Part shown: positions 5,307 through 47,347 of the stretch, in pieces | How positions within the stretch are numbered: position 1 is the stretch's first letter | Layout of the letters: each line of letters begins with the position of its first letter | Source of the DNA: a virus | Reading direction: 5' to 3' (one strand) | DNA length: 64,000 nt | Virus record (IMG/VR): IMGVR_UViG_3300046453_000063 | Location: 99,995-163,994 of that record | Notes under the pieces: model-generated | What the model was told of the DNA's origin: nothing | The model's input: only the letters and a program-made list of their open reading frames with translations | Databases searched by the model: none | Position numbers and translations under genes: made by a program

Positions 5307-6182
5307 CTATTTATCGAAATTAGATTTTCTTATTGCCTTGAGTTTTCCATACTCATAAAATTCAGACATGCTAGAAGAATTTACTAACAAATTGTCAATA
5401 TCAAAACATATCCAACTTGACCCGGAATTTAGAAAATCAACAGCATATTCATATATTTCTTTTACCTTGTGTTTTGTTGGTAGATAGTCTTTTTTACTGA
5501 CCACTCTTATTTCCTTCCAGCCTCTGCGATTCAAGGCATACCATCTTGCTTTTTCATACTTTTCAAAATCTTCTCTTGACTTTTCTCCTCTTTTAACATT
5601 TAAATCATGACCGCTGCCGTCAAACTCTAAGTATATTTTTTGTTCTGGGAAAGCAACATCAAGAGATAAGGTATGTACTGGGTAATTTAATATACCACCA
5701 ATAGAACTTTGTATATATTTTTGTTGGCATGATACTGGCGCACTGCCGTTTTCAAATAAAGTTTTTCTTCTTTTTATAGCAGCGCAAGTTTGACATCTGC
5801 CACCAATTTTAAAACTATCATAAGAAATTTCATCTATCTTTCCGCATTCACATATATACTTCATTTTACATCTTGCGTTAATATAGTCTTTTTCATCTAT
5901 TAGCAATTTACAGTTTCCGTCTAAAAATTCTTTTTCTAAGTATTCAAAAGGAAGTCGTAATTGTATTGATTGGTTTTCATATTTACACTTAATACATCTT
6001 TTGCCACACTTGAATTTATCAAAACAAATTTCTGCTTCCCTATTACAAATACATATATATTTCATCTTTGTTTTTGCGTTTTTATATTCTGTATCTAATA
6101 ACTTACATCCATTATCTTCAAAATACTTTTTAACATCTTCATACTGTAATCTTCTTGTACACCACGTATTGTCCTTATTCAT
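5307..6182 (-). CDS. Free-standing homing-endonuclease-like protein (repeated Zn-finger domains plus Vsr/PD-(D/E)xK-like nuclease)
   Basis: Two KMKYICxC...RCxxC repeats; C-terminal LDVA...IYLEFDGSGH...GW motif. Confidence 0.7.
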   Translation of the reverse strand: MNKDNTWCTRRLQYEDVKKYFEDNGCKLLDTEYKNAKTKMKYICICNREAEICFDKFKCGKRCIKCKYENQSIQLRLPFEYLEKEFLDGNCKLLIDEKDYINARCKMKYICECGKIDEISYDSFKIGGRCQTCAAIKRRKTLFENGSAPVSCQQKYIQSSIGGILNYPVHTLSLDVAFPEQKIYLEFDGSGHDLNVKRGEKSREDFEKYEKARWYALNRRGWKEIRVVSKKDYLPTKHKVKEIYEYAVDFLNSGSSWICFDIDNLLVNSSSMSEFYEYGKLKAIRKSNFDK

Positions 6183-6230
6183 AAACCATCACATTCCTCA
6201 CAATATAATATCCTCACTTAATTTAAAAAT

Positions 6231-6291
6231 GACATGAGAAGATGAGTGAGGTCACCATTCACTTAGATAGCTAGTCTAAGAGTCTCATGTC
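6231..6291 (-). promoter_or_regulatory. Structured leader upstream of endonuclease gene
   Basis: Outer stem GACATGAGA/TCTCATGTC enclosing CTTAGA-TAGCTAG-TCTAAG; its CCTCAC (mRNA sense) is complementary to two downstream GTGAGG SD-like sites. Confidence 0.5.
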
Positions 6292-6506
6292 GTAAAAAAT
6301 CACTATTAATAACTCAAAAAACCGAATAAAACTCCCATTTCACAACACTTCAAAAAGTAAAACTTAAATGAGGATAGCGGGGGAGTGTCCACTGTTTAAT
6401 GCAAACCCTTGTAGCAGGGGCATCCTCATTTAAAAAATAAGAACAATAAAAAGGGCGATTCTAGATTAGCAATCGTCCAAGGATTTCTTCTTATTTTTAC
6501 AATAAA

Positions 6507-9312: not shown

Positions 9313-10506
9313 TTACATACGATCAGCAATCGCTGCAATTTTAGAGCGATAGATTGTTTTAAACTCAACTTCACCATACAACTGTTCACCACGAAATACT
9401 GTGCTTGTGCGCTTTATCCCATTATTAATTCCAGCATAAGAATCTGAATCTACCTGTGTTTTGTCATCGCCATCAATGATAATCTGGCTACCCTTACCAA
9501 TGCGCTGCAGACCAAGCTTCATCAAGTCAACAGATAGATTTTGTGCTTCAGAAATCCATACCAACGATTTATCACCAGTGTCATATCCTCGAATATCAAC
9601 AAATGGAATCAATACAAGTCTTCCAGTGGCAATCAGCGCCTCAACTTCTTCTTTATTACCCAATTTGCTAATCAGTAAGTTTCCAATGCCGCTCTGCAAT
9701 AACTTCTCGTTCTTATCACCTTTATAAAAGCCGATTTCTTGCGCTCCCCGTACGGGAACAGGATTTACCAGACAGATGAGTTTATTAATTCTGCCCTTTT
9801 CGAGTTGATGCATTGCATATGCAAACGCGAGCAAACTTTTACCAGAACCTGCTTTACCACGCAGAAGTGTAATATCATTTGTAATCAATGAATCAATAGC
9901 GGCAATCTGATGCATGTCGAGTGGCTTGAATTTTCCCATTGCTACAGTAGATAAATTCTTTTCCGCACAATCAACAAACTCTTTACCGTTCCACTTCTTA
10001 ACATCTACGGGTTGACCAGACTCTCTTATGATAATTATGTATTCGTTAGTTAGAAGATTATATTTATTAATATTTCTATTTTCGTAAAAGTAAGCCATTT
10101 CAGATTCGCTCATTGTGATTTCTTTATATCCACAATAGGAATCTTCACTATAAGCATCGTCGGGTTCATATACGTCTACACCAAGAGATTTTGCTTTAAG
10201 TTGTGCAAGAAAATCGCCAGATATGAGAGAGGCATCGTGAAATTCAGCGCAAGCAACAATGACATCATCATTACTAAGTTGTGCTGCTGAATGCTGTTTT
10301 CCGAATTCATGATCATAGAAGATATCTGTTTTCGATTTTAATTTGCGAACCGCCTGACGAGCACGAAACGCCGTATCGGTAATGCCAACTTTTAATTTAT
10401 CAAGTTCATGAAGTACAATTTCAGGAATAATAATTGAATTTTCAATATCAAGAACTTCAATATGTTGCAACAGGGCGTTAGTATCAACTACGACCTTATT
10501 TTTCAT
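9313..10506 (-). CDS. phoH: PIN-domain plus PhoH ATPase (PhoH2/YlaK-like)
   Basis: VVDTNALL, ELDKLK, NDD PIN motifs; GKAGSGKS, IRG, EAQN, RIG, DGD..Q.D, RS..A PhoH motifs. Confidence 0.9.
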   Translation of the reverse strand: MKNKVVVDTNALLQHIEVLDIENSIIIPEIVLHELDKLKVGITDTAFRARQAVRKLKSKTDIFYDHEFGKQHSAAQLSNDDVIVACAEFHDASLISGDFLAQLKAKSLGVDVYEPDDAYSEDSYCGYKEITMSESEMAYFYENRNINKYNLLTNEYIIIIRESGQPVDVKKWNGKEFVDCAEKNLSTVAMGKFKPLDMHQIAAIDSLITNDITLLRGKAGSGKSLLAFAYAMHQLEKGRINKLICLVNPVPVRGAQEIGFYKGDKNEKLLQSGIGNLLISKLGNKEEVEALIATGRLVLIPFVDIRGYDTGDKSLVWISEAQNLSVDLMKLGLQRIGKGSQIIIDGDDKTQVDSDSYAGINNGIKRTSTVFRGEQLYGEVEFKTIYRSKIAAIADRM

Positions 10507-11338: not shown

Positions 11339-13939
11339 TTACTGTTTTCTTTGTTTTTTCCTATACTGTCTTTGTTTTTCGGCATTATATTTCTTCCATT
11401 CTTCTTTTTGACAGTGCTTGCAATAGATTTGATTATTTGTGTTTACTTCAATTCTAGTCCCACAAGACTTGCATAGGACTTTTTCTAAACTATCAATAGT
11501 GTTACTTTTAATATTCTCAACAATAACATCTCCAAAACTAGACCACAGTGTTGTCTTATAGCTACTTTTCTTTTTTTCATACAAGAATTGTACTAGCACA
11601 TCGACTACATGATCTACATCATTACAAACTTCCAATATCTTGTCTCTAATGTTTTTATAAACAAACAAACTATCTCCCGTATAGTGACCATCAACCGGAC
11701 GAGTATCCATAAATCGCTTTTTAAGGTCTAATTCCTTATATCTTTCAATGATTTGATTGTCTATGTCTCTCTTAGCATACTCTTTACTCATCAACACCTT
11801 GTAATCAAATTCTCCTATATTCATTGCAGAGAATTTAATTCTTGGATTAGGGATAAGTTTACCAAGCCTATTGACCACGCTCTCATTAACTGGTTCTACA
11901 TTAGGTTTTTCTTTGTCTTTTGCATATACAAAGAAATAGGGTGTTTTAGACTTTGTATATTCGGTAATTATTTTTTTCTTGTTATTCGGTCTTTCTGGTT
12001 TGTACAAAGTTTTTGCGTAATCAATTGTAAAATTGTTCTCCATACATAATAGTTTGATCACATCCAGGTTAACGTTGTTACTATTCCAGATCTTCGTGAT
12101 GTCGTTACTGATCATCCCAATATTGCCACCAGTATAAGCAGACTTTAATCCTTCATATATAGTCTCATAATTAACAGGTTGTGCTTCTGCTTTTGCCATG
12201 TTGTAGAATAGGGGGTTAATACCTTTCATATTTCTTTCTGCAACTTCTACGATAGTTTTATCATTACAAACTAAACTTTTATCTCCATCAACGTCAAACA
12301 TGAGTATTTTACTGATAGCATCATGACAACTTGTATATAGATTCTTAGTGACGAACCAGCGTTTCATTTCTTTATTTACTTTATTTTTTCGGACAGCGTG
12401 TTCCCGGTATAGATGAGGGCTACGTAAACAATCAAGTTTTTCCTCATCATTATAAAGGAAGCAAGAAACTTCTCCATCATCAATCAACCCTTTGGGGTCT
12501 TTATCGTCCTTAATTAAGTATTCACAAAAAGCATGTAAATCTGGACATATGAATGTGTATTTGCCGCTTATTGAGATCTTCCCGGCTTTTGCAGACATTA
12601 CCATGCTCTTTTTAGTCTGCTTAAGGATTTCTTTGCTATATGTATCATTTAATAGTTCTGGATAAATCTCAAGCGCTTGCTGGACATAGTTTTTGTTTAT
12701 ATTTGTTTCTGTAGCACCAAGTATTTTAAGCATGGTGCGCCGATCTGTTCCAACATTAATGATATTGTTTCTAGTTTCTTCACTAATCGTTCTTAACTCA
12801 TCATCGGTGATGTCTGTTAGGGTTTGAAGCATTTGATAATTCAACTTGGCATTCTTAATGAATGATTCTTCTTCGTTGCACTTTCCTGCATGGCATTTAA
12901 ACTTTTTATAAAATTTCTTGTACTCATCCCAGGAAGAATAGTACTTCCACATTTTAAACTGGCTTTTTGTGAATATTATTTCAATTTTTTCAGCGTTTAG
13001 ATCATGCTCTTTACCATAAATATCTTTAACGGTGCCGTAGAGTCCTTTTTTTGCCTTCTTGTTTTCTTCACGAATGAATTTATCGAAAGGAAAAGGGACT
13101 AACAAACCTTTTACCCAAGGCAGACGCACCATTATACTATTCTTACTAACTCTTGGCAGGATCATTCCACAACCATCTGTGTGTTCGATGGGAATGTCCA
13201 TATTCTTTGTTTCAATTTCATATGTCTTGTCATCAATGAAGTCAACAGTACAGTTAACAAGTGTTTCCATGTCATTGACCACGATAGATTTGTCAATATC
13301 AAACTCATCCCATTTTTCCGTTGCACTATTGCAGAGAGCAAGATAGGCTAGATACTTGTTAATATTGACTCCTTTATGATCATTAATCTTTTTAATGGTA
13401 AGACCACACATCAGCGATTGTTGATATTTATTAAATGTTTTTTCTTTAATGAATACCGTTTTCTTCGTTCTAATTTGTCCCGCGCTTGCTGTAAAGCATA
13501 TGTATTTTTCATTATCAAAGATAAATCCATTATGTATAAGATCTTTTAAAATATCAAAAAAGTAAGTTTGAACAACAAGTATGTCTTTGGTTAAAGTATT
13601 CTGTTTAATCTTTAGAGTTCTTGTTAATACGGAGTCGAATACTGAAATCGTATTTTTTTCTCTAATCAACTCACTACGCAAAACTCTAAGTTCTTCATTT
13701 TTTGTAAATAGTTTGTACAGTGTATCCTTTAGATTTTTAATTCGAGTGGAAGTCCTTGAGATTTTTTCTTCAAATCTTTTTTTTGTGTCGTCTTCAATGT
13801 GAGCTGATTTTATTTTACCTTTTAATAAATATCGAAATCTGTAGTTCTTATTTAATCTTCTATGTATGGACATTTCACTTTCGTTATAAAAGAAACTGGT
13901 ATCGATGCTGTATACATGGACTTGTTTGTCTAGGCTAAT
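11339..13939 (-). CDS. yonO: Single-subunit DNA-dependent RNA polymerase (YonO-like), probable ATT start
   Basis: Catalytic DVDGD (DxDGD), RSPH, TDGCG, RLPWVKG, SAGQIR motifs; in-frame ATT at 13939, 8 nt after GGAGG, restores the N-terminal KQVHVYSIDTS typical of YonO. Confidence 0.92.
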   Translation of the reverse strand: MSLDKQVHVYSIDTSFFYNESEMSIHRRLNKNYRFRYLLKGKIKSAHIEDDTKKRFEEKISRTSTRIKNLKDTLYKLFTKNEELRVLRSELIREKNTISVFDSVLTRTLKIKQNTLTKDILVVQTYFFDILKDLIHNGFIFDNEKYICFTASAGQIRTKKTVFIKEKTFNKYQQSLMCGLTIKKINDHKGVNINKYLAYLALCNSATEKWDEFDIDKSIVVNDMETLVNCTVDFIDDKTYEIETKNMDIPIEHTDGCGMILPRVSKNSIMVRLPWVKGLLVPFPFDKFIREENKKAKKGLYGTVKDIYGKEHDLNAEKIEIIFTKSQFKMWKYYSSWDEYKKFYKKFKCHAGKCNEEESFIKNAKLNYQMLQTLTDITDDELRTISEETRNNIINVGTDRRTMLKILGATETNINKNYVQQALEIYPELLNDTYSKEILKQTKKSMVMSAKAGKISISGKYTFICPDLHAFCEYLIKDDKDPKGLIDDGEVSCFLYNDEEKLDCLRSPHLYREHAVRKNKVNKEMKRWFVTKNLYTSCHDAISKILMFDVDGDKSLVCNDKTIVEVAERNMKGINPLFYNMAKAEAQPVNYETIYEGLKSAYTGGNIGMISNDITKIWNSNNVNLDVIKLLCMENNFTIDYAKTLYKPERPNNKKKIITEYTKSKTPYFFVYAKDKEKPNVEPVNESVVNRLGKLIPNPRIKFSAMNIGEFDYKVLMSKEYAKRDIDNQIIERYKELDLKKRFMDTRPVDGHYTGDSLFVYKNIRDKILEVCNDVDHVVDVLVQFLYEKKKSSYKTTLWSSFGDVIVENIKSNTIDSLEKVLCKSCGTRIEVNTNNQIYCKHCQKEEWKKYNAEKQRQYRKKQRKQ

Positions 13940-14520: not shown

Positions 14521-14592
14521 GTGTTTATGAGACAGATGGATACAAACATAATGAATTCAAAAAACAATACATATAATAAGGAGGAGAACAAT

Positions 14593-15660
14593 ATGAGTGC
14601 TATAACAAACAATGTAGTGGGATTACATATGGGTAATGTATGGGAAGACATCCAGACACACCTAAAAGGATTTGAAAGCAAACACACATCTGAAAATTAT
14701 GAACGTGGTTTGAGAAAGTTCTTTCAGTGGTTTAAAGGAAAAGATCTGGAGTTGCTGACAAGAGAGGACTTATACATCAGAAATGCAGATGTTTTGAAAT
14801 ACCGCAACTTTTTAAAAGAAATACTCGATGAAGAAGGCGAGAGACAATACACTAACACTTCAATCAACAATGTCATTGCTGCTATTCAATCACTCTATGT
14901 GTTTCTTGAGAAGAATGACTATGATGTTAAATCTGTGACCACCAGAGCGAATCCACTTGCTGACGACTCTGTAAGATGTGGAGCGCTTTACACTCATGAA
15001 GCTGAAAAAATGGCCGACATTATTATTGATACTGTCAAAGGAATAGAAAAATCAGCATTGATCAGAATGGCATATATAACAAGCTTTCGTAAGGGATCTT
15101 TGCTTAGATTAGAATGGGATGATATTGTAGAACACCCAAGTAACAAGTATTACGAAGTTACTGTAATGGGCAAAGGCGGTAAGAAACATACTGTTCCAAT
15201 TTCAGAAGATCTTTATCAATATGTTCTAAAAATTAAGGATCAGAGGTACTACGAAAGATACAATGATAATAAAATATTCCATTTAAGTACTGGTGCAATT
15301 CAAGATATGATGACTTATTTAAAGGATAAAATGAGCATCTCTGAACAAAGAAATGTAGTATTTCATAGCTTCCGAAATGTTGCTTCTATGTATGGTACTT
15401 TAGAAGAAGCTAAAGAGCATTATAATCACAGTAGCTTTAATGTAACAGAAAAATATAGACATAAAGATAATGATATGAGCAATAGTTTGAGTTTGAGAAT
15501 TGGCGAGAAGATTGACGATGAGATTTTTATGGAGTTAAGCAAAGAGGAGATTATTCAATTAGTGTTGAGACAGAATGAAGGAGTGATTCATCAGATGAAG
15601 AGAGACGCACAGAAAATTGTTAATGATAAAAATGAAAATAAAAAGGAGAGTGTTGAGTAA
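14593..15660 (+). CDS. Tyrosine recombinase/integrase with intact catalytic residues
   Basis: SAM-like N-domain; R (TSFRKG), K (GKGGK), HSFR, H and Y (NHSS...KY); GGAGG RBS before ATG 14593. Confidence 0.88.
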   Translation: MSAITNNVVGLHMGNVWEDIQTHLKGFESKHTSENYERGLRKFFQWFKGKDLELLTREDLYIRNADVLKYRNFLKEILDEEGERQYTNTSINNVIAAIQSLYVFLEKNDYDVKSVTTRANPLADDSVRCGALYTHEAEKMADIIIDTVKGIEKSALIRMAYITSFRKGSLLRLEWDDIVEHPSNKYYEVTVMGKGGKKHTVPISEDLYQYVLKIKDQRYYERYNDNKIFHLSTGAIQDMMTYLKDKMSISEQRNVVFHSFRNVASMYGTLEEAKEHYNHSSFNVTEKYRHKDNDMSNSLSLRIGEKIDDEIFMELSKEEIIQLVLRQNEGVIHQMKRDAQKIVNDKNENKKESVE

Positions 15661-17946: not shown

Positions 17947-18613
17947 AGATAATACAAATAAGAAACAATACATAAAGATTAGAACAGATGTCGTGAGGGA
18001 TGAAAATATAACTGCTAATGATTTTGCAATAATCTTATATCTCAAATACATGACCTGGAAGACTGGTGGTAAATACAGGTTTGAGGTATTATTGTCTGAG
18101 TTAAAAAGTTTTCTCAATGTAGCTGATAATAAATCACTTAAGCCTATATACACAAGTCTTTATAATAACGAGTACATAATTGAACCTATGAAGCCACTGA
18201 AACCAAATACACCTATACTTTTTGTTTTAAATAAAAATAAGTTTAATACTGATGATTTAAGTGGAGATGAATTTTTTACTCATCTCCCTATCAGTATTTT
18301 GTTTGGTCTTAAAGATGGGAAGATTGATAAGAAAGAAGTTAGAATATTGTATTATTTGAAAAGTTATATTAATTATACTGATTCAAAAAAGCATTTTTGT
18401 TATACGGGAATTGAGAAGACGATGACCAGAGAACTGAACATGAGCGAGAAGACAATACCCAAATACACAAAATCACTTGTCGATAAAAAATTAATAAATA
18501 TAGAGAGACATGTTTTTAAAACTGAATACCAGTATGATGAAAATGGGAAGCTGCTATTTAACAAGTTCAACAATCACTATTATATCAATTATGAAAACAT
18601 AGTTGATCTATAG
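17939..18613 (+). CDS. Putative replication initiator (tandem winged-helix)
   Basis: Two wHTH-like repeats (ILYLKY...ELKSFL; ILYYLKSY...TMTRELNMSEKTIPKYTKSLVDKKLI); iterons start 14 nt after the stop. Confidence 0.65.
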   Translation: MSKDNTNKKQYIKIRTDVVRDENITANDFAIILYLKYMTWKTGGKYRFEVLLSELKSFLNVADNKSLKPIYTSLYNNEYIIEPMKPLKPNTPILFVLNKNKFNTDDLSGDEFFTHLPISILFGLKDGKIDKKEVRILYYLKSYINYTDSKKHFCYTGIEKTMTRELNMSEKTIPKYTKSLVDKKLINIERHVFKTEYQYDENGKLLFNKFNNHYYINYENIVDL

Positions 18614-18623
18614 AGAATTCCTC

Positions 18624-18719
18624 TACCCGTAATTTTTCCCACTACTAACCGTAATATCTCCCACATCCTACCGTAAAATATCCCTTATCTAACCGTAATT
18701 CATCCGGGAGAGATTACGG
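18624..18719 (+). repeat. Iteron array: four direct repeats at exact 22-bp period plus one inverted copy (putative origin)
   Basis: CCGTAA core at 18627, 18649, 18671, 18693; inverted TTACGG at 18714-18719. Confidence 0.85.
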
Positions 18720-32503: not shown

Positions 32504-32841
32504 ACGAGTTATGATCACCTCAAGGATAAATAATTTAGGTATCCACTTCATAGGCCCCTGCCTCAATAGTATACTAAGTATTAAATGAAGTTGGCTGGAT
32601 AGGAGCGAGATTTTGTGATAAATAAAAGATGGTTTAAATGGTCTGTAGTAGTGAAAACGGAATCCTAAGATTCAATTGGTAGAACCTGATAAAACCCGTC
32701 TTTTACGTAAACTTTATAAGCACATATGCTTATATGATACGATACTTGATAAACAGGTATCGTTTTTTAATTTATATTGAAAAATATTTAAAAATAAAAA
32801 TATGTCAATGAAAAATATTTATTGCTTTTAATCAAAACCCA

Positions 32842-32895
32842 TTGACGTACATACGACAGTGTGGTATATTTATATCAAGAAGTCGCACATACGAC
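32842..32895 (+). promoter_or_regulatory. Sigma-A promoter with two 14-bp operator copies
   Basis: TTGACG-17-TATATT; GACGTACATACGAC (32844-32857) and GTCGCACATACGAC (32882-32895). Confidence 0.7.
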
Positions 32896-32944
32896 AAAAA
32901 AGCCGCAGCTACAATAGGGTAGCGGGTACAGGGAGCTAATTAAA

Positions 32945-33112
32945 ATGCAAATTCAAACTTTTACCGCAGTAAAGTCGCTATGGCCTAATATGGAAGGTAA
33001 CGCTTATTGGACTATTACAGATGGAGTTGTTGAAAAGGGAGAATTCGGAAGCGAAAAGGAAGCCATTGACAACATGGAGCGGATCATTGGTAATTGGCGG
33101 TGTGATTCCTAA
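32945..33112 (+). CDS. Small 55-aa protein (not in track), candidate anti-CRISPR
   Basis: AGGGAG RBS; stop overlaps next ATG (TAATG); MQIQTFTAVKSLWPNMEGNAYWTITDGVVEKGEFGSEKEAIDNMERIIGNWRCDS. Confidence 0.55.
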   Translation: MQIQTFTAVKSLWPNMEGNAYWTITDGVVEKGEFGSEKEAIDNMERIIGNWRCDS

Positions 33113-33582
33113 TGGATATTCGTAGTGTTAAATTTGCACAGTTAATGGCAATTGCGAATGTTCTAGGGGAAAGAGTCATTGACAGGAATGAGTACGGAAT
33201 GGGAAAAGAAGTTGGAATAGCTGGTGTGCATTTGACCAACATGCAACGAAAGCCAGCCATCACCTTAGAGCGCATTCACCGGGATCTGATGGAGCATGCG
33301 GAGAGGTTTGGAAAACATGAATTGGTTCTCCTAGATATGTTTGGGGAGATCATGGCAGATTTATCAGTGGAAGAATTCACAAACGAACCGTTGGATAAGA
33401 AATACTTACACGCCTATTACATCCAGCAAAACGCACTGGCGCAGGTGACAACCGTTAAGGGGTACGCTTTAAAGTCTGGATTAAACATTCGCACAATTCA
33501 GAGGATGTGTGTAGACGGAAGTTTAAAAGCTAAAAATGAATATGGAGTATGGTTAATTGAAGATACAGAAGAAAATCAATGA
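33112..33582 (+). CDS. Cas8c-C-terminal/Cas11-like helical domain fused to C-terminal HTH
   Basis: FAQLMAIAN...P..TLE...L...YLHAYY.Q resembles the Csd1 C-terminus; TVKGYALKSGLNIRTIQRMC..G.LKA...GVWLI is an HTH_17/MerR-like motif. Confidence 0.6.
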   Translation: MDIRSVKFAQLMAIANVLGERVIDRNEYGMGKEVGIAGVHLTNMQRKPAITLERIHRDLMEHAERFGKHELVLLDMFGEIMADLSVEEFTNEPLDKKYLHAYYIQQNALAQVTTVKGYALKSGLNIRTIQRMCVDGSLKAKNEYGVWLIEDTEENQ

Positions 33583-33705
33583 GGATTATTATGTTAGATG
33601 TATTTGTGGAACCCATAATCACAACACACGGTCACAATAGGCCATTACTTACGCGATTTCCAGCGATGTGTTACTATGGCAGAAAGAGCTGTAGGAGGCG
33701 TTAGA

Positions 33706-33960
33706 ATGGCTTATACAACGTGTAGGGATGAATTGCTGAAGACAGTCAAAAAGCTTGTGAAAGATAAAGGTAAGAATGAATTCACACCTATTGAAGTCTT
33801 AACCTTAATGTTGCAAAACGGGTCTAATTACAATGTAAAAACGATACGAACACATATTGTTTCAAAGTGCTGCATTAACGCAAATCAGAATCATATTGAA
33901 GTATTTAATGATTACCGGAGACTGGAACGAGGAAAGTATGAGTTGATTAATTTTGAATAA
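33706..33960 (+). CDS. Small winged-helix-like protein
   Basis: AGGAGG RBS; TCRDE...FT..EV...TIRTHIVS.CC.NA...RG.Y pattern. Confidence 0.6.
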   Translation: MAYTTCRDELLKTVKKLVKDKGKNEFTPIEVLTLMLQNGSNYNVKTIRTHIVSKCCINANQNHIEVFNDYRRLERGKYELINFE

Positions 33961-35620: not shown

Positions 35621-36629
35621 AAAAGCTAATATCTAATGGAGTGCAAAGCAGCTTACAAAGTCAATTCAAAAAGGGAATATTAAATTTGATAATGCCGTTC
35701 AACGTGGTTATGTGTGGGACCAAGACAGAAAGTCTTTGCTTATTCACTCTCTCATTGAAGGATATCCTGTGCCAGCGTTCTACGCCGTCAAAGACGAGAA
35801 TAGCCAGTATAGTATGCTTGATGGAAAACAGAGATCAGAGGCTATCAGCGGCTTTCTAAACGGTGAATATGAACTAACCAATGTGCCTGAAATTAACATT
35901 GGTGATGAAGGCGAAACACTCAACATCAACGGCCTGAAATTCGCCGATTTACCGGAAGATGCGAGAGATGAAATTGAAAGTTATTCATTAACTGTTTATT
36001 ACTTTGACAGCCAAATTACCGATGATGAAATTAATGAATTATTTTTCAGACTCAATAACGGCAAGCCATTGACAAGTATTGAGCTTGGTCGAGTTAAAGC
36101 AAAATCAATTGAAACAATCCAGGAAATCGGTAAACACGATCTATTCAAAACAACGTTAACAGAAAAGGCCATTAACAAATATACGAATGAAGAAATTGTT
36201 ATTAAGTCGTGGGCAATGCTGAACGTTGAACAGCCCTCATTTGAAACTAAATCAATTCGACCTCTGATTGAAACGGCAGATATTACACCAGAGCAAACAG
36301 AGAAAATTAAAGTTGCCTATGATCGAATTCTGGAGACTTACAATTCAATCAAGCAAATTAATGATAAAGAACATAATAAAATTGCAAAACGAATCATCAC
36401 ACGGACACACTTAATTGCATTGGTTCCTGTTGCCGTTAAATCAGCTAGTGATGGAGTTGAGATTTCCGATTTTACAAAATGGGCAACATCATTTTTTAGC
36501 GGAAAGAAATCTGCAAGCGTGAGCGAAGTATATAATAGCGCAATTGGTTCTGGATCTGCTAAACCGGAAAGTATCAAGAAAAGAAATGATTCGATTATGG
36601 AAAGTTACAATGAACAATTCTCAAACTAA
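35613..36629 (+). pseudogene. DUF262 (ParB-like/GmrSD N-terminal) gene interrupted by in-frame TAA at codon 8
   Basis: GGAGG RBS, ATG 35613, MIKKANI-stop(35634-35636)-WSAKQL...QRGYVW; downstream DGKQR and FFRLNNG motifs. Confidence 0.75.
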
Positions 36630-46015: not shown

Positions 46016-47347
46016 TTGAAAAAAGACAGAGATCAGCTTGAAACATTAATTGCGGACACAATTGCAGAAGTTAAAGTTGATCGGAAAAAAGTGTTGAAAG
46101 TTAATAATTTCCTCTCTGAATCAGGAGTATCATTAGGAACATTTGATGAGATATCAAAGGGAGATAAACAATTATCAACACTTGAATCATCAATGTTATG
46201 TGTTTTATCCGACGCTCTGTATGAATTAACTGGCAATGGTAATCTTAAACCTGACCAATGGTTTACCACTAAAGAAATAAACTATGCAAAAAAAGAATTA
46301 ATGAACAATACAGAAACCAATAGAATAATGTTACCCATAGCATTAGAAAATGTTGAAATGGTAAATATTGATAACTATATTACAAAAATTAAAATGTCTG
46401 ATTTAGTTCAGTGGTTTCACTCCCAACTTATTATTTATGACTTTGATACTCAAAGAAGCGCAAAATTTAAAACTGGTAAGAATGGGGTTGTACCAGTTCC
46501 AGACATCAATCTAAAAAGTGTTAAAGACATTGCAGAAAACATGCTAAACGGTACATACCTGGAAGATATGATTACGCTAAACATCTACTCTGATGAAGCT
46601 GAAGCGGTTGATTACAACTCTAAGTCACGACTATTGACAATCAACGAGCAGGCAGCCATATCAATACTTGATGGCTTTCACCGTCTTCAGGGCGGTGTGA
46701 GAGCTTGCGCTATCAATCCAGAATTAGAGCAGATGATGATACTATCAATACGGTCTTACGATACAGATACGGCAAAGAAATACTTTGGACAAATCAATAC
46801 AATCAATGTTGTTAAAAAGGAACGGCTTAAAGAATTGAAATCACAAGAGTTCTCTGATCTGGTCGTTAAAGATCTTCAGCAAAAAACAGACCTTAAAGGC
46901 AAAATTGCTTCTGCATCAAGAATCAGTGAATTGGCTGGACAATTGACCACCTTTGACATCCTATCCTATGCTATTGATAATGTCTATAAACCCAAAAGCA
47001 GACTCGATGCAATGGAAATGTCTGAAACACTCACTAAGTTTTTTAATTATCTAGCAGGAAGTTATGTTGATGAGTTTATTACAAATCCTAACAAATATAG
47101 GGATGAGAACATTAATCATTCTCTTATGTTCGTGGGATATGTTGTAATTGCTAAACACTTTGAAGACAACCAAATTCCGTATAAAGAAATAAAGAGTTTC
47201 ATCGAAAGCAAAATAAATTTTCAAGATAAGAAGTTAATCGAGCTTTTGAATAATAAGCGTGGAATCAATAACACAAAAGTAAGAAACGATGTAATTAAAT
47301 ACTTTGAGCGGCTGATAGGAATAGGAGTGGATCAAGATGTCCAATAA
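46016..47347 (+). CDS. YopQ/SroE-like DndB/ParB-superfamily (DGQHR-type) protein
   Basis: QR motif (DTQR), ILDGFHR, FGQINT; directly upstream of the yopR-like gene as in SPbeta. Confidence 0.78.
   Translation: MKKDRDQLETLIADTIAEVKVDRKKVLKVNNFLSESGVSLGTFDEISKGDKQLSTLESSMLCVLSDALYELTGNGNLKPDQWFTTKEINYAKKELMNNTETNRIMLPIALENVEMVNIDNYITKIKMSDLVQWFHSQLIIYDFDTQRSAKFKTGKNGVVPVPDINLKSVKDIAENMLNGTYLEDMITLNIYSDEAEAVDYNSKSRLLTINEQAAISILDGFHRLQGGVRACAINPELEQMMILSIRSYDTDTAKKYFGQINTINVVKKERLKELKSQEFSDLVVKDLQQKTDLKGKIASASRISELAGQLTTFDILSYAIDNVYKPKSRLDAMEMSETLTKFFNYLAGSYVDEFITNPNKYRDENINHSLMFVGYVVIAKHFEDNQIPYKEIKSFIESKINFQDKKLIELLNNKRGINNTKVRNDVIKYFERLIGIGVDQDVQ

Follow-up and report, generated by a model that had tools for sequence, protein, structure and literature searches.

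To our knowledge, anti-CRISPR proteins (Acrs) derived from Cas subunits have been demonstrated experimentally only in Listeria, where AcrIB3 and AcrIB4 act against type I-B systems and Cas3 homologues such as AcrVIA2 act against type VI-A. The closest point of comparison for the present work is AcrIB4 of Listeria seeligeri, described by Katz et al., which shares 38% identity with the final 90 residues of Cas8b and inhibits type I-B at a point before target DNA is bound, whilst Cascade still assembles (bioRxiv 10.1101/2023.06.24.545427). A modelling study proposed that AcrIB4 replaces Cas11 (bioRxiv 10.1101/2025.06.06.658234), and how it works is still unclear according to a 2026 review (PMC13131331). 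Here, we analyse a two-gene cassette at positions 32842–33582 of a 64,000-nucleotide (nt) stretch of viral DNA, positions 99,995 to 163,994 of IMG/VR record IMGVR_UViG_3300046453_000063, hereafter the window. The cassette consists of open reading frames (ORFs) for proteins of 55 and 156 residues, ORF55 and ORF156, and the N-terminal domain of ORF156 is almost certainly a homologue of Cas11c. Judged from its sequence, the cassette is on balance probably an autoregulated anti-CRISPR operon directed against type I-C, a counterpart of AcrIB4 with a built-in autorepressor of the anti-CRISPR-associated (Aca) type; with, if anything, slightly more assurance, ORF156 itself would be the inhibitor of type I-C CRISPR-Cas.

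AcrIB4 and ORF156 are alike in being small proteins of mobile elements that share homology with the Cas11-equivalent region at the C-terminus of Cas8 and are encoded outside cas operons. They differ in origin, as only the Cas_Csd1 and TIGR01863 models were matched by ORF156, placing it with Cas8c/Cas11c of type I-C rather than with Cas8b of type I-B, a comparison made by published description and family models. The degree of relatedness also differs (identity is approximately 28% between ORF156 and the C-terminal domain of a host Cas8c, and 38% between AcrIB4 and Cas8b), and ORF156, unlike AcrIB4, carries a fused winged helix–turn–helix (HTH) domain and is found in phages of Bacillales rather than of Listeria. 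With Cas11c itself (PDB 7KHA, 8DEX and 8DEJ), ORF156 has the fold and framework residues in common, whereas it is an orphan phage gene with its own promoter, a net charge of −4 and a C-terminal HTH extension. Its layout resembles that of the Acr–Aca fusions (AcrIIA1, AcrIIA13-15, AcrIF24 and AcrIIC9), single polypeptides that join an inhibitor to an HTH repressing the acr promoter via inverted repeats: ORF156 likewise combines a candidate inhibitor domain with an HTH, and there are inverted repeats at its own promoter. In contrast to these fusions, the candidate inhibitor domain is derived from a Cas subunit, and the HTH, which lies at the C-terminus, belongs to the excisionase/MerR type rather than being Cro/XRE-like.

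Orphan viral ‘cas8c’ genes have been catalogued before. Table S3 of Katz et al. lists such genes from IMG/VR, some of approximately 300 nt, as putative Acrs; the cas8c entries examined, which were left uncharacterized there, belong mostly to phages of Lachnospiraceae and other Clostridia (bioRxiv 10.1101/2023.06.24.545427). None of five related UViG identifiers and no Paenibacillus entry was found in the table, and the catalogue describes no HTH fusion or operator architecture of the kind present in the ORF156 cassette. Within the searchable literature, which is incomplete, we found neither a Cas11c-derived inhibitor of type I-C nor a Cas-derived Acr–Aca fusion.

The coding part of the second gene comprises the following features.

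33112–33582 (+), ORF156, 156 residues
33112–33447 (+), residues 1–112 of ORF156, homologous to Cas11c and the Cas8c C-terminal domain, with the net charge reversed
33439–33582 (+), residues 110–156 of ORF156 and the stop codon, winged HTH of excisionase/MerR type (Aca-like)

The C-terminal part of Cas8c, approximately 110 residues, is also produced separately as Cas11c via internal translation. In PDB 7KHA and 8DEX, the Cas11c chain is listed separately. ORF156 alone matched the extreme C-terminal end of the Pfam model Cas_Csd1 (PF09709; model positions 474–558 of 559, E 2.7e-4), as well as TIGR01863 (Cas8c/Csd1; E 4.5e-6). An exhaustive phmmer search with ORF156 yielded 50 cluster representatives; 40 family members were aligned, 31 of which matched Cas_Csd1 (best E 1.6e-18), several of them above the curated cut-off. 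By BLASTP, residues 2–111 of ORF156 aligned with residues 529–633 of Cas8c from Paenibacillus sp. S150 (a 649-residue translated frame) at 28% identity (E 2e-9), and a profile–profile comparison by hhalign between the family and 26 Cas8c proteins, a set of close Bacillales sequences only, gave a probability of 99.5% (E 2.3e-23) over the final 110 or so Cas8c residues. A phmmer search of PDB sequences with ORF156 produced no match, and only the family profile reached Cas11c, with an E-value of 0.003.

The fold agrees with these profile matches. A single-sequence AlphaFold2 (AF2) model was unusable, with a predicted local distance difference test (pLDDT) score of 47.6, and a model built with the family alignment (pLDDT 87.9) was used instead. 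The top Foldseek matches of this model were Cas11c, albeit with modest E-values (1.6e-2). With VIA-align, the top eight matches were all type I-C Cas11c or Cas8c (Z 11.8–13.7, root-mean-square deviation 2.0–2.7 Å over 98–113 residues), the best being the Cas11c chain 8dex_J (Z 13.7, 2.2 Å over 104 residues), and the next matches had Z-scores of 6.4 or less and covered the HTH (residues 110–156). Residues of the fold framework common to ORF156 and the host proteins are R4, F8, P48, I55, E79, F89, P93, L94, Y98, L99 and Q105. The original prediction, made from the letters of the window, had likened the N-domain to the C-terminus of Cas8c or to Cas11 and had proposed a structural comparison with both; the homology proved specific to the Cas8c C-terminal domain and Cas11c by profile (Cas_Csd1, TIGR01863 and hhalign) and by structure.

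ORF156 stands by itself, under a promoter of its own, and lies neither inside a cas8c gene or a type I-C cas operon nor beside a CRISPR array. No Cas7 gene and no second Cas11-like copy were found in the whole phage, and no CRISPR-like array in the 64-kb window; the original prediction had likewise noted no other cas genes or arrays in the window. The viral domains also differ from their host counterparts in charge. With net basic charge taken as a stand-in for the surface that small subunits turn towards DNA, a measure of our own choosing and not a curated criterion, the ORF156 domain stands at −4 and the mean of 40 viral domains at −2.75, against +1 to +6 for all 26 of the host Cas8c C-terminal domains; the viral columns aligned with the host residues R540, K590 and K607 are 62–70% acidic. 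A scaffold that is kept whilst its basic character is lost is the look that would be expected of a dominant-negative small subunit.

The regulatory part of the cassette and its first gene comprise the following features.

32739–32763 (+), hairpin resembling an intrinsic terminator, with a 10-bp stem, 4 GC pairs and, behind it, a T-rich tail with a T run
32842–32870 (+), promoter of sigma-A/sigma-70 type, 10/12 consensus matches, with an extended −10 TG
32844–32857 (no strand), operator-like site O1, GACGTACATACGAC, overlapping the −35 element and the spacer
32882–32895 (no strand), operator-like site O2, GTCGCACATACGAC, a GTCG-N6-CGAC dyad just past the likely transcription start
32902–32927 (+), 26-nt hairpin in the 5′ untranslated region (5′UTR), with 9 predicted pairs, directly 5′ of the ribosome-binding site
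32931–32935 (+), ribosome-binding site GGGAG, serving ORF55
32945–33112 (+), ORF55, a small conserved protein of 55 residues in ‘acr position’, coupled to ORF156

The promoter has a −35 element TTGACG (32842–32847), a 17-nt spacer with the TG at 32862–32863, and a −10 element TATATT (32865–32870). Taking the transcription start to be near 32877, O2 occupies about +5 to +18. Both sites are 14-bp near-palindromes with the core GTCG-N6-CGAC, the dyad of O1 being imperfect because its bases also serve the −35 element. In the window, O1 and O2 are the sole matches to the pattern with up to two mismatches, against a chance expectation of 0.36, and two or more matches occurred in 5 of 100 shuffles; in the whole 164-kb phage they are the sole matches with up to one mismatch, and a reversed-pattern control gave none. 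The position and conservation of the sites weigh more than the shuffle count.

Related loci were collected with a 12-sequence alignment, and are referred to by number (L001 and so on) where they need to be told apart. Across five related promoters (window, L023, L024, L001 and L004) the −35 and −10 elements and their spacing are kept; all five have O1, and four have O2. The half-sites appear to vary together with the HTH: in the window, L023 and L024, HTH residues G-L-N...V-D-G-S accompany CGAC half-sites, and in L001 and L004, residues K/R-P...E-D-G-R accompany CGCC half-sites, with O2 of L004 changed in both halves (GGCG...CGCC). This suggests co-variation of the kind expected of a protein and its operator. 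The 5′UTR hairpin is almost invariant across the same five promoters, whose flanks differ; the two changes in it are one-sided (G-C to G-U and C-G to U-G), with no compensatory pairs, and it may act as an RNA-level control or stability element. When promoters from more distant relatives were searched for inverted repeats, no common operator emerged, and the autoregulatory layout is therefore documented for the close group only. A distant relative, L011, has a 19-nt inverted repeat at 1174–1225 (95% complementary, with a 14-nt loop) 5′ of a gene pair encoding a Gp111 protein and a Cas11c-HTH protein, a possible operator or terminator. Upstream of the window cassette, the hairpin at 32739–32763 appears to close the preceding unit and so to insulate the cassette from the upstream gene; its stem motif, ACGATACYT, is not found phage-wide.

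The winged HTH of ORF156 gave structural matches of Z 6.0–6.4 to BldC and the Xis protein of mycobacteriophage Pukovnik, and also resembled P2 Cox and MerR-type domains; by profile, ORF156 matched the Cox-like PHROG 575 (E 0.005), and close relatives such as P0005 pass the HTH_17 cut-off. No match was found between the HTH of the window protein and the named Aca families. The domain is encoded last in the operon, and the inverted-repeat sites overlap the operon's own promoter. It is likely, on this arrangement, that the HTH autoregulates the cassette through O1 and O2. Much of this had been anticipated: the self-contained promoter with one near-palindrome over the −35 element and spacer and the other after the start was found as described, the C-terminal domain is indeed an HTH, and the supposed acr–aca layout is borne out by the conservation of promoter and sites in relatives and by the co-variation of half-site and HTH. 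The proposed translational coupling of the two genes also stands, as the stop codon of ORF55 and the start codon of ORF156 share one base (TAATG).

ORF55 had no family match in Pfam, PHROG or NCBIfam, and a homologue search with it returned close homologues only. These lie directly 5′ of the Cas11c-HTH gene in L001, L004, L007 and L009 (55–84% identity), and a 55-residue gene is likewise directly upstream of that gene in L023 and L024. An assignment of ORF55 as a WGR domain was set aside, as the Atlas feature search gave clusters of that name at 0.88, below the trusted level.

These features are consistent with a model where the host sigma-A RNA polymerase would transcribe both genes from their common promoter (32842–32870), and the N-domain of ORF156, a diverged Cas11c in which the core of the fold is kept and several host-basic positions have turned acidic, would occupy a Cas11c place on Cascade or dock on the C-terminal domain of Cas8c. 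A complex bearing ORF156 would be unable to stabilize the R-loop or the non-target strand, and Cas3 would not be licensed, a mode of inhibition that has been put forward for AcrIB4 in type I-B. Co-expressed ORF55 might either inhibit in its own right or act as a partner for ORF156. As ORF156 accumulates, its winged HTH, probably as a dimer, would bind both GTCG-N6-CGAC sites and shut the promoter, with occupancy of either O1 (at the −35 element and spacer) or O2 predicted to block initiation. Such a defective complex seems more likely than the poisoned assembly of the original prediction, because AcrIB4 spares the assembly of Cascade yet blocks target DNA binding.

The wider family is consistent with a module that has been combined with different regulators. 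The Cas11c-like domain occurs alone in proteins of 103–112 residues, and with a C-terminal HTH_17 or HTH_59 domain in relatives. Some relatives instead carry an N-terminal HTH that matches the N-terminal domain of AcrIIA15 (E 6.5e-6) and Aca11 (E 0.032), an HTH that belongs to these other family members and is lacking from the window protein, and further relatives join the Cas11c-like domain to an AbrB-like N-terminus. In L008 (Virgibacillus), a ribbon–helix–helix gene and a small ORF are followed by a gene encoding the Cas11-like domain only. The swapping of domains, with HTHs at either end, resembles the modularity of Acrs.

The cassette itself is mobile. At 41.6% in the window and 45.6% in L001, its G+C content differs from the 32–35% of the SPbeta-like flanks, and in L023 and L004 it matches surroundings of 45–47%. 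The start of a DUF7669 gene lies 5′ of the cassette in L001 (700–930) and 3′ of it in the window (about 33610–33770), and homology between loci starts exactly at the −35 element. Since the base composition departs from that of the flanks and the DUF7669 start switches side, the promoter and the two genes have moved as a block.

Several observations weigh against an anti-CRISPR role, or lend it less than they might at first seem to. The match of ORF156 alone to Cas_Csd1 scores 20.2 bits, under the Pfam gathering cut-off of 27, and the case for Cas11c homology therefore rests on the relatives, the profiles and the fold. A reuse of the domain outside CRISPR would account for the reversal of charge equally well. 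There is no recognizable second site in L001, and the co-variation of half-site and HTH represents one evolutionary event, so that it is suggestive and not strong. In a complex prediction for the natural pair from Paenibacillus sp. S150 (the prophage N-domain of L009 with Cas8c residues 430–642), the score was 0.43 against 0.00 for the best control, with contact agreement between runs of at least 66% and a partner pLDDT of at least 79. Of 80 solved complexes, 58 reached the mark used for such predictions, as did 2 of 110 mismatched pairs; with scores of 0.60 or less, only 7 of the 80 did so, together with both mismatches. As complexes of Cas11c with Cas8c have been solved, a pass may reflect memory, and the prediction gives weak support, pointing to likeness rather than binding.

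The record of hosts and neighbours belongs with these points. Cas8c was present in 155 of 401 sampled genomes (39%) of the relatives' bacterial family, which makes type I-C a major barrier for these phages; the figure describes that family, which may not be the one that hosts the window phage. A full-length Cas8c was found in three of five genomes with a relative, all three from Bacillales, a proportion not above this background of 39%, and we set this co-occurrence aside as uninformative since so many of the sampled genomes carry Cas8c anyway. A search for acr neighbours, as had been advised, found no experimentally validated Acr beside any family copy. A weak AcrIC5-like C-terminal tail in P0044 (E 1.5e-4, 22.2 bits against a cut-off of 27) lies below threshold, and was taken as a hint only.

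The reading of ORF156 as nothing more than a regulator (Aca, Cox or Xis-like), with the Cas11-like bundle exapted for oligomerization or ligand sensing and ORF55 as the Acr or other anti-defence payload, we regard as unlikely, although several features favour it. ORF55 occupies the ‘acr’ position, and ORF156 comes last, where an aca gene would stand; between distant loci ORF55 is better conserved than ORF156 (60% against 52% identity in L009); and a palindromic operator needs a dimer, for which the N-domain could provide the dimerization. A dimerization module of one regulator family, however, would not be expected to stand alone, as the Cas11c-like domain also does, nor to be joined, at either end, to at least four unrelated DNA-binding domains, which is the pattern expected of an effector that recruits regulators. 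Cas11c-specific motifs are retained along the full N-domain, and the Cas11c-HTH gene is kept without ORF55 in L005 and in the loci with a Phage_Gp111 gene directly upstream (e.g. L011–L013), which also counts against this reading.

The excisionase/MerR class of the C-domain (HTH_17, TIGR01764), with its resemblance to Pukovnik Xis and P2 Cox, raises the question of whether ORF156 serves the phage life cycle instead, as an excisionase or recombination-directionality factor or as a lysis–lysogeny switch, its likeness to Cas11c being irrelevant to immunity. The phage is temperate and SPbeta-like, with an integrase at 14521–15660, and an integrase adjoins the operon in L024. Such a role nevertheless seems very unlikely to us: the integrase of the window is 17 kb distant, in other phages the neighbours of the cassette are lysis genes, terminases or small ORFs of no relation, it is equipped with a promoter and a terminator and differs from its flanks in base composition, and O1 and O2 lie in that promoter and not in an attachment site. 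We also know of no Cas-derived domain in a recombination-directionality factor. Scarcely probable, too, is an action on host CRISPR-Cas that is indirect or not inhibitory, in which the HTH would repress the host cas operon or a Cas11–HTH hybrid would redirect or tether Cascade. The union of a Cascade-subunit homologue and a sequence-specific DNA-binding domain in one polypeptide invites the idea, but across the whole phage the recognized motif is matched solely in the cassette's own promoter, and the versions of the protein that lack the HTH or are fused otherwise mark it as exchangeable regulatory equipment.

Returning to an autoregulated inhibitor of type I-C, a more elaborate form of it can be imagined, which we consider a long shot: a demand-sensing circuit in which Cascade takes up the Cas11c-like domain and thereby draws the repressor away from its operators. 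The level of Acr would then rise with that of type I-C Cascade and fall at saturation, and ORF55, which co-evolves, would aid loading or mimic a second contact surface.

Type I-C is a compact system that is used in genome editing and for large deletions. If the family is active, the strategy of a ‘faulty small subunit’, so far shown for type I-B only, would extend to type I-C, and the family would offer a natural series of charge-reversed Cas11c variants able to show which surfaces of Cas11 matter for R-loop stabilization. ORF156 would then also be the first Cas-derived inhibitor known to us that is fused to its own Aca regulator. The Cas11c-like family, with ORF55 and the Phage_Gp111 proteins, marks accessory loci of Bacillales phages, in which further anti-defence genes could be found by association.

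The relatives in bacterial genomes come from Paenibacillus, Alicyclobacillus and Virgibacillus, with one weak partial match in an Accumulibacter metagenome-assembled genome, and they sit in accessory positions of prophages, with genes for terminase, lysis or integrase next to them. What lies directly upstream differs between loci: in L005, a different ORF of 94 residues takes the place of the ORF55 homologue; in many unrelated prophages, a gene of the Phage_Gp111 family (PF07410) is directly upstream of the Cas11c-like gene; and in L007 and L009, a Phage_Gp111 gene precedes the ORF55 homologue. The Phage_Gp111 protein is a candidate partner or further anti-defence gene, and was located at the following positions.

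L009, 5371–5802, Phage_Gp111-family gene
L011, 1251–1697, Phage_Gp111-family gene
L012, 5536–5958, Phage_Gp111-family gene
L037, 3013–3588, Phage_Gp111-family gene
P0027 contig, Phage_Gp111-family gene

The copy in L023 is 94% identical and adjoins a terminase. In the same small-gene cluster, just 5′ of the small terminase gene, 444–791 encodes an Acb2/Tad1-hairpin protein, of a family of anti-CBASS/anti-Thoeris sponges. In L007 (Alicyclobacillus suci), two overlapping frames of 68 and 130 residues (5933–6399) take the place of a single Cas11c-HTH gene, owing either to a frameshift or to a sequencing error; the upstream ORF55 homologue is intact, and the genome has a full type I-C Cas8c.

The window is the final 64 kb of the 163,994-bp IMG/VR phage, which has direct terminal repeats at its ends. 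A search of the cassette locus against GenBank phages by blastn gave no match, and an Rfam scan gave nothing relevant there. It is a large, Bacillus-type, temperate phage, and is grouped with the SPbeta-like phages because of a YonO-like single-subunit RNA polymerase of 843 residues with an RdRP-type domain (11339–13873, −), which shares 52–57% identity with proteins from phi3T, from SPbeta-type phages and from Clostridium phage D-1873. Its integrase is placed as follows.

14521–15660, integrase, 17 kb from the cassette

Immediately 3′ of the cassette is the gene for a DUF7669 protein (33676–33960, +), and approximately 2 kb 3′ of it that for a protein with a GmrSD_N domain (35712–36629, +), a GmrSD_N neighbour being present in L001 as well. 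Elsewhere in the window are genes for a DndB-like protein, of the kind associated with DNA sulfur modification (46016–47347, +), and a PIN-PhoH fusion protein (9313–10506, −). Lastly, a 22-bp tandem repeat of 3.5 copies, which is not CRISPR-like, lies at 18623–18699, just past the end of a gene at 18613, and could represent iterons or a recombination site.

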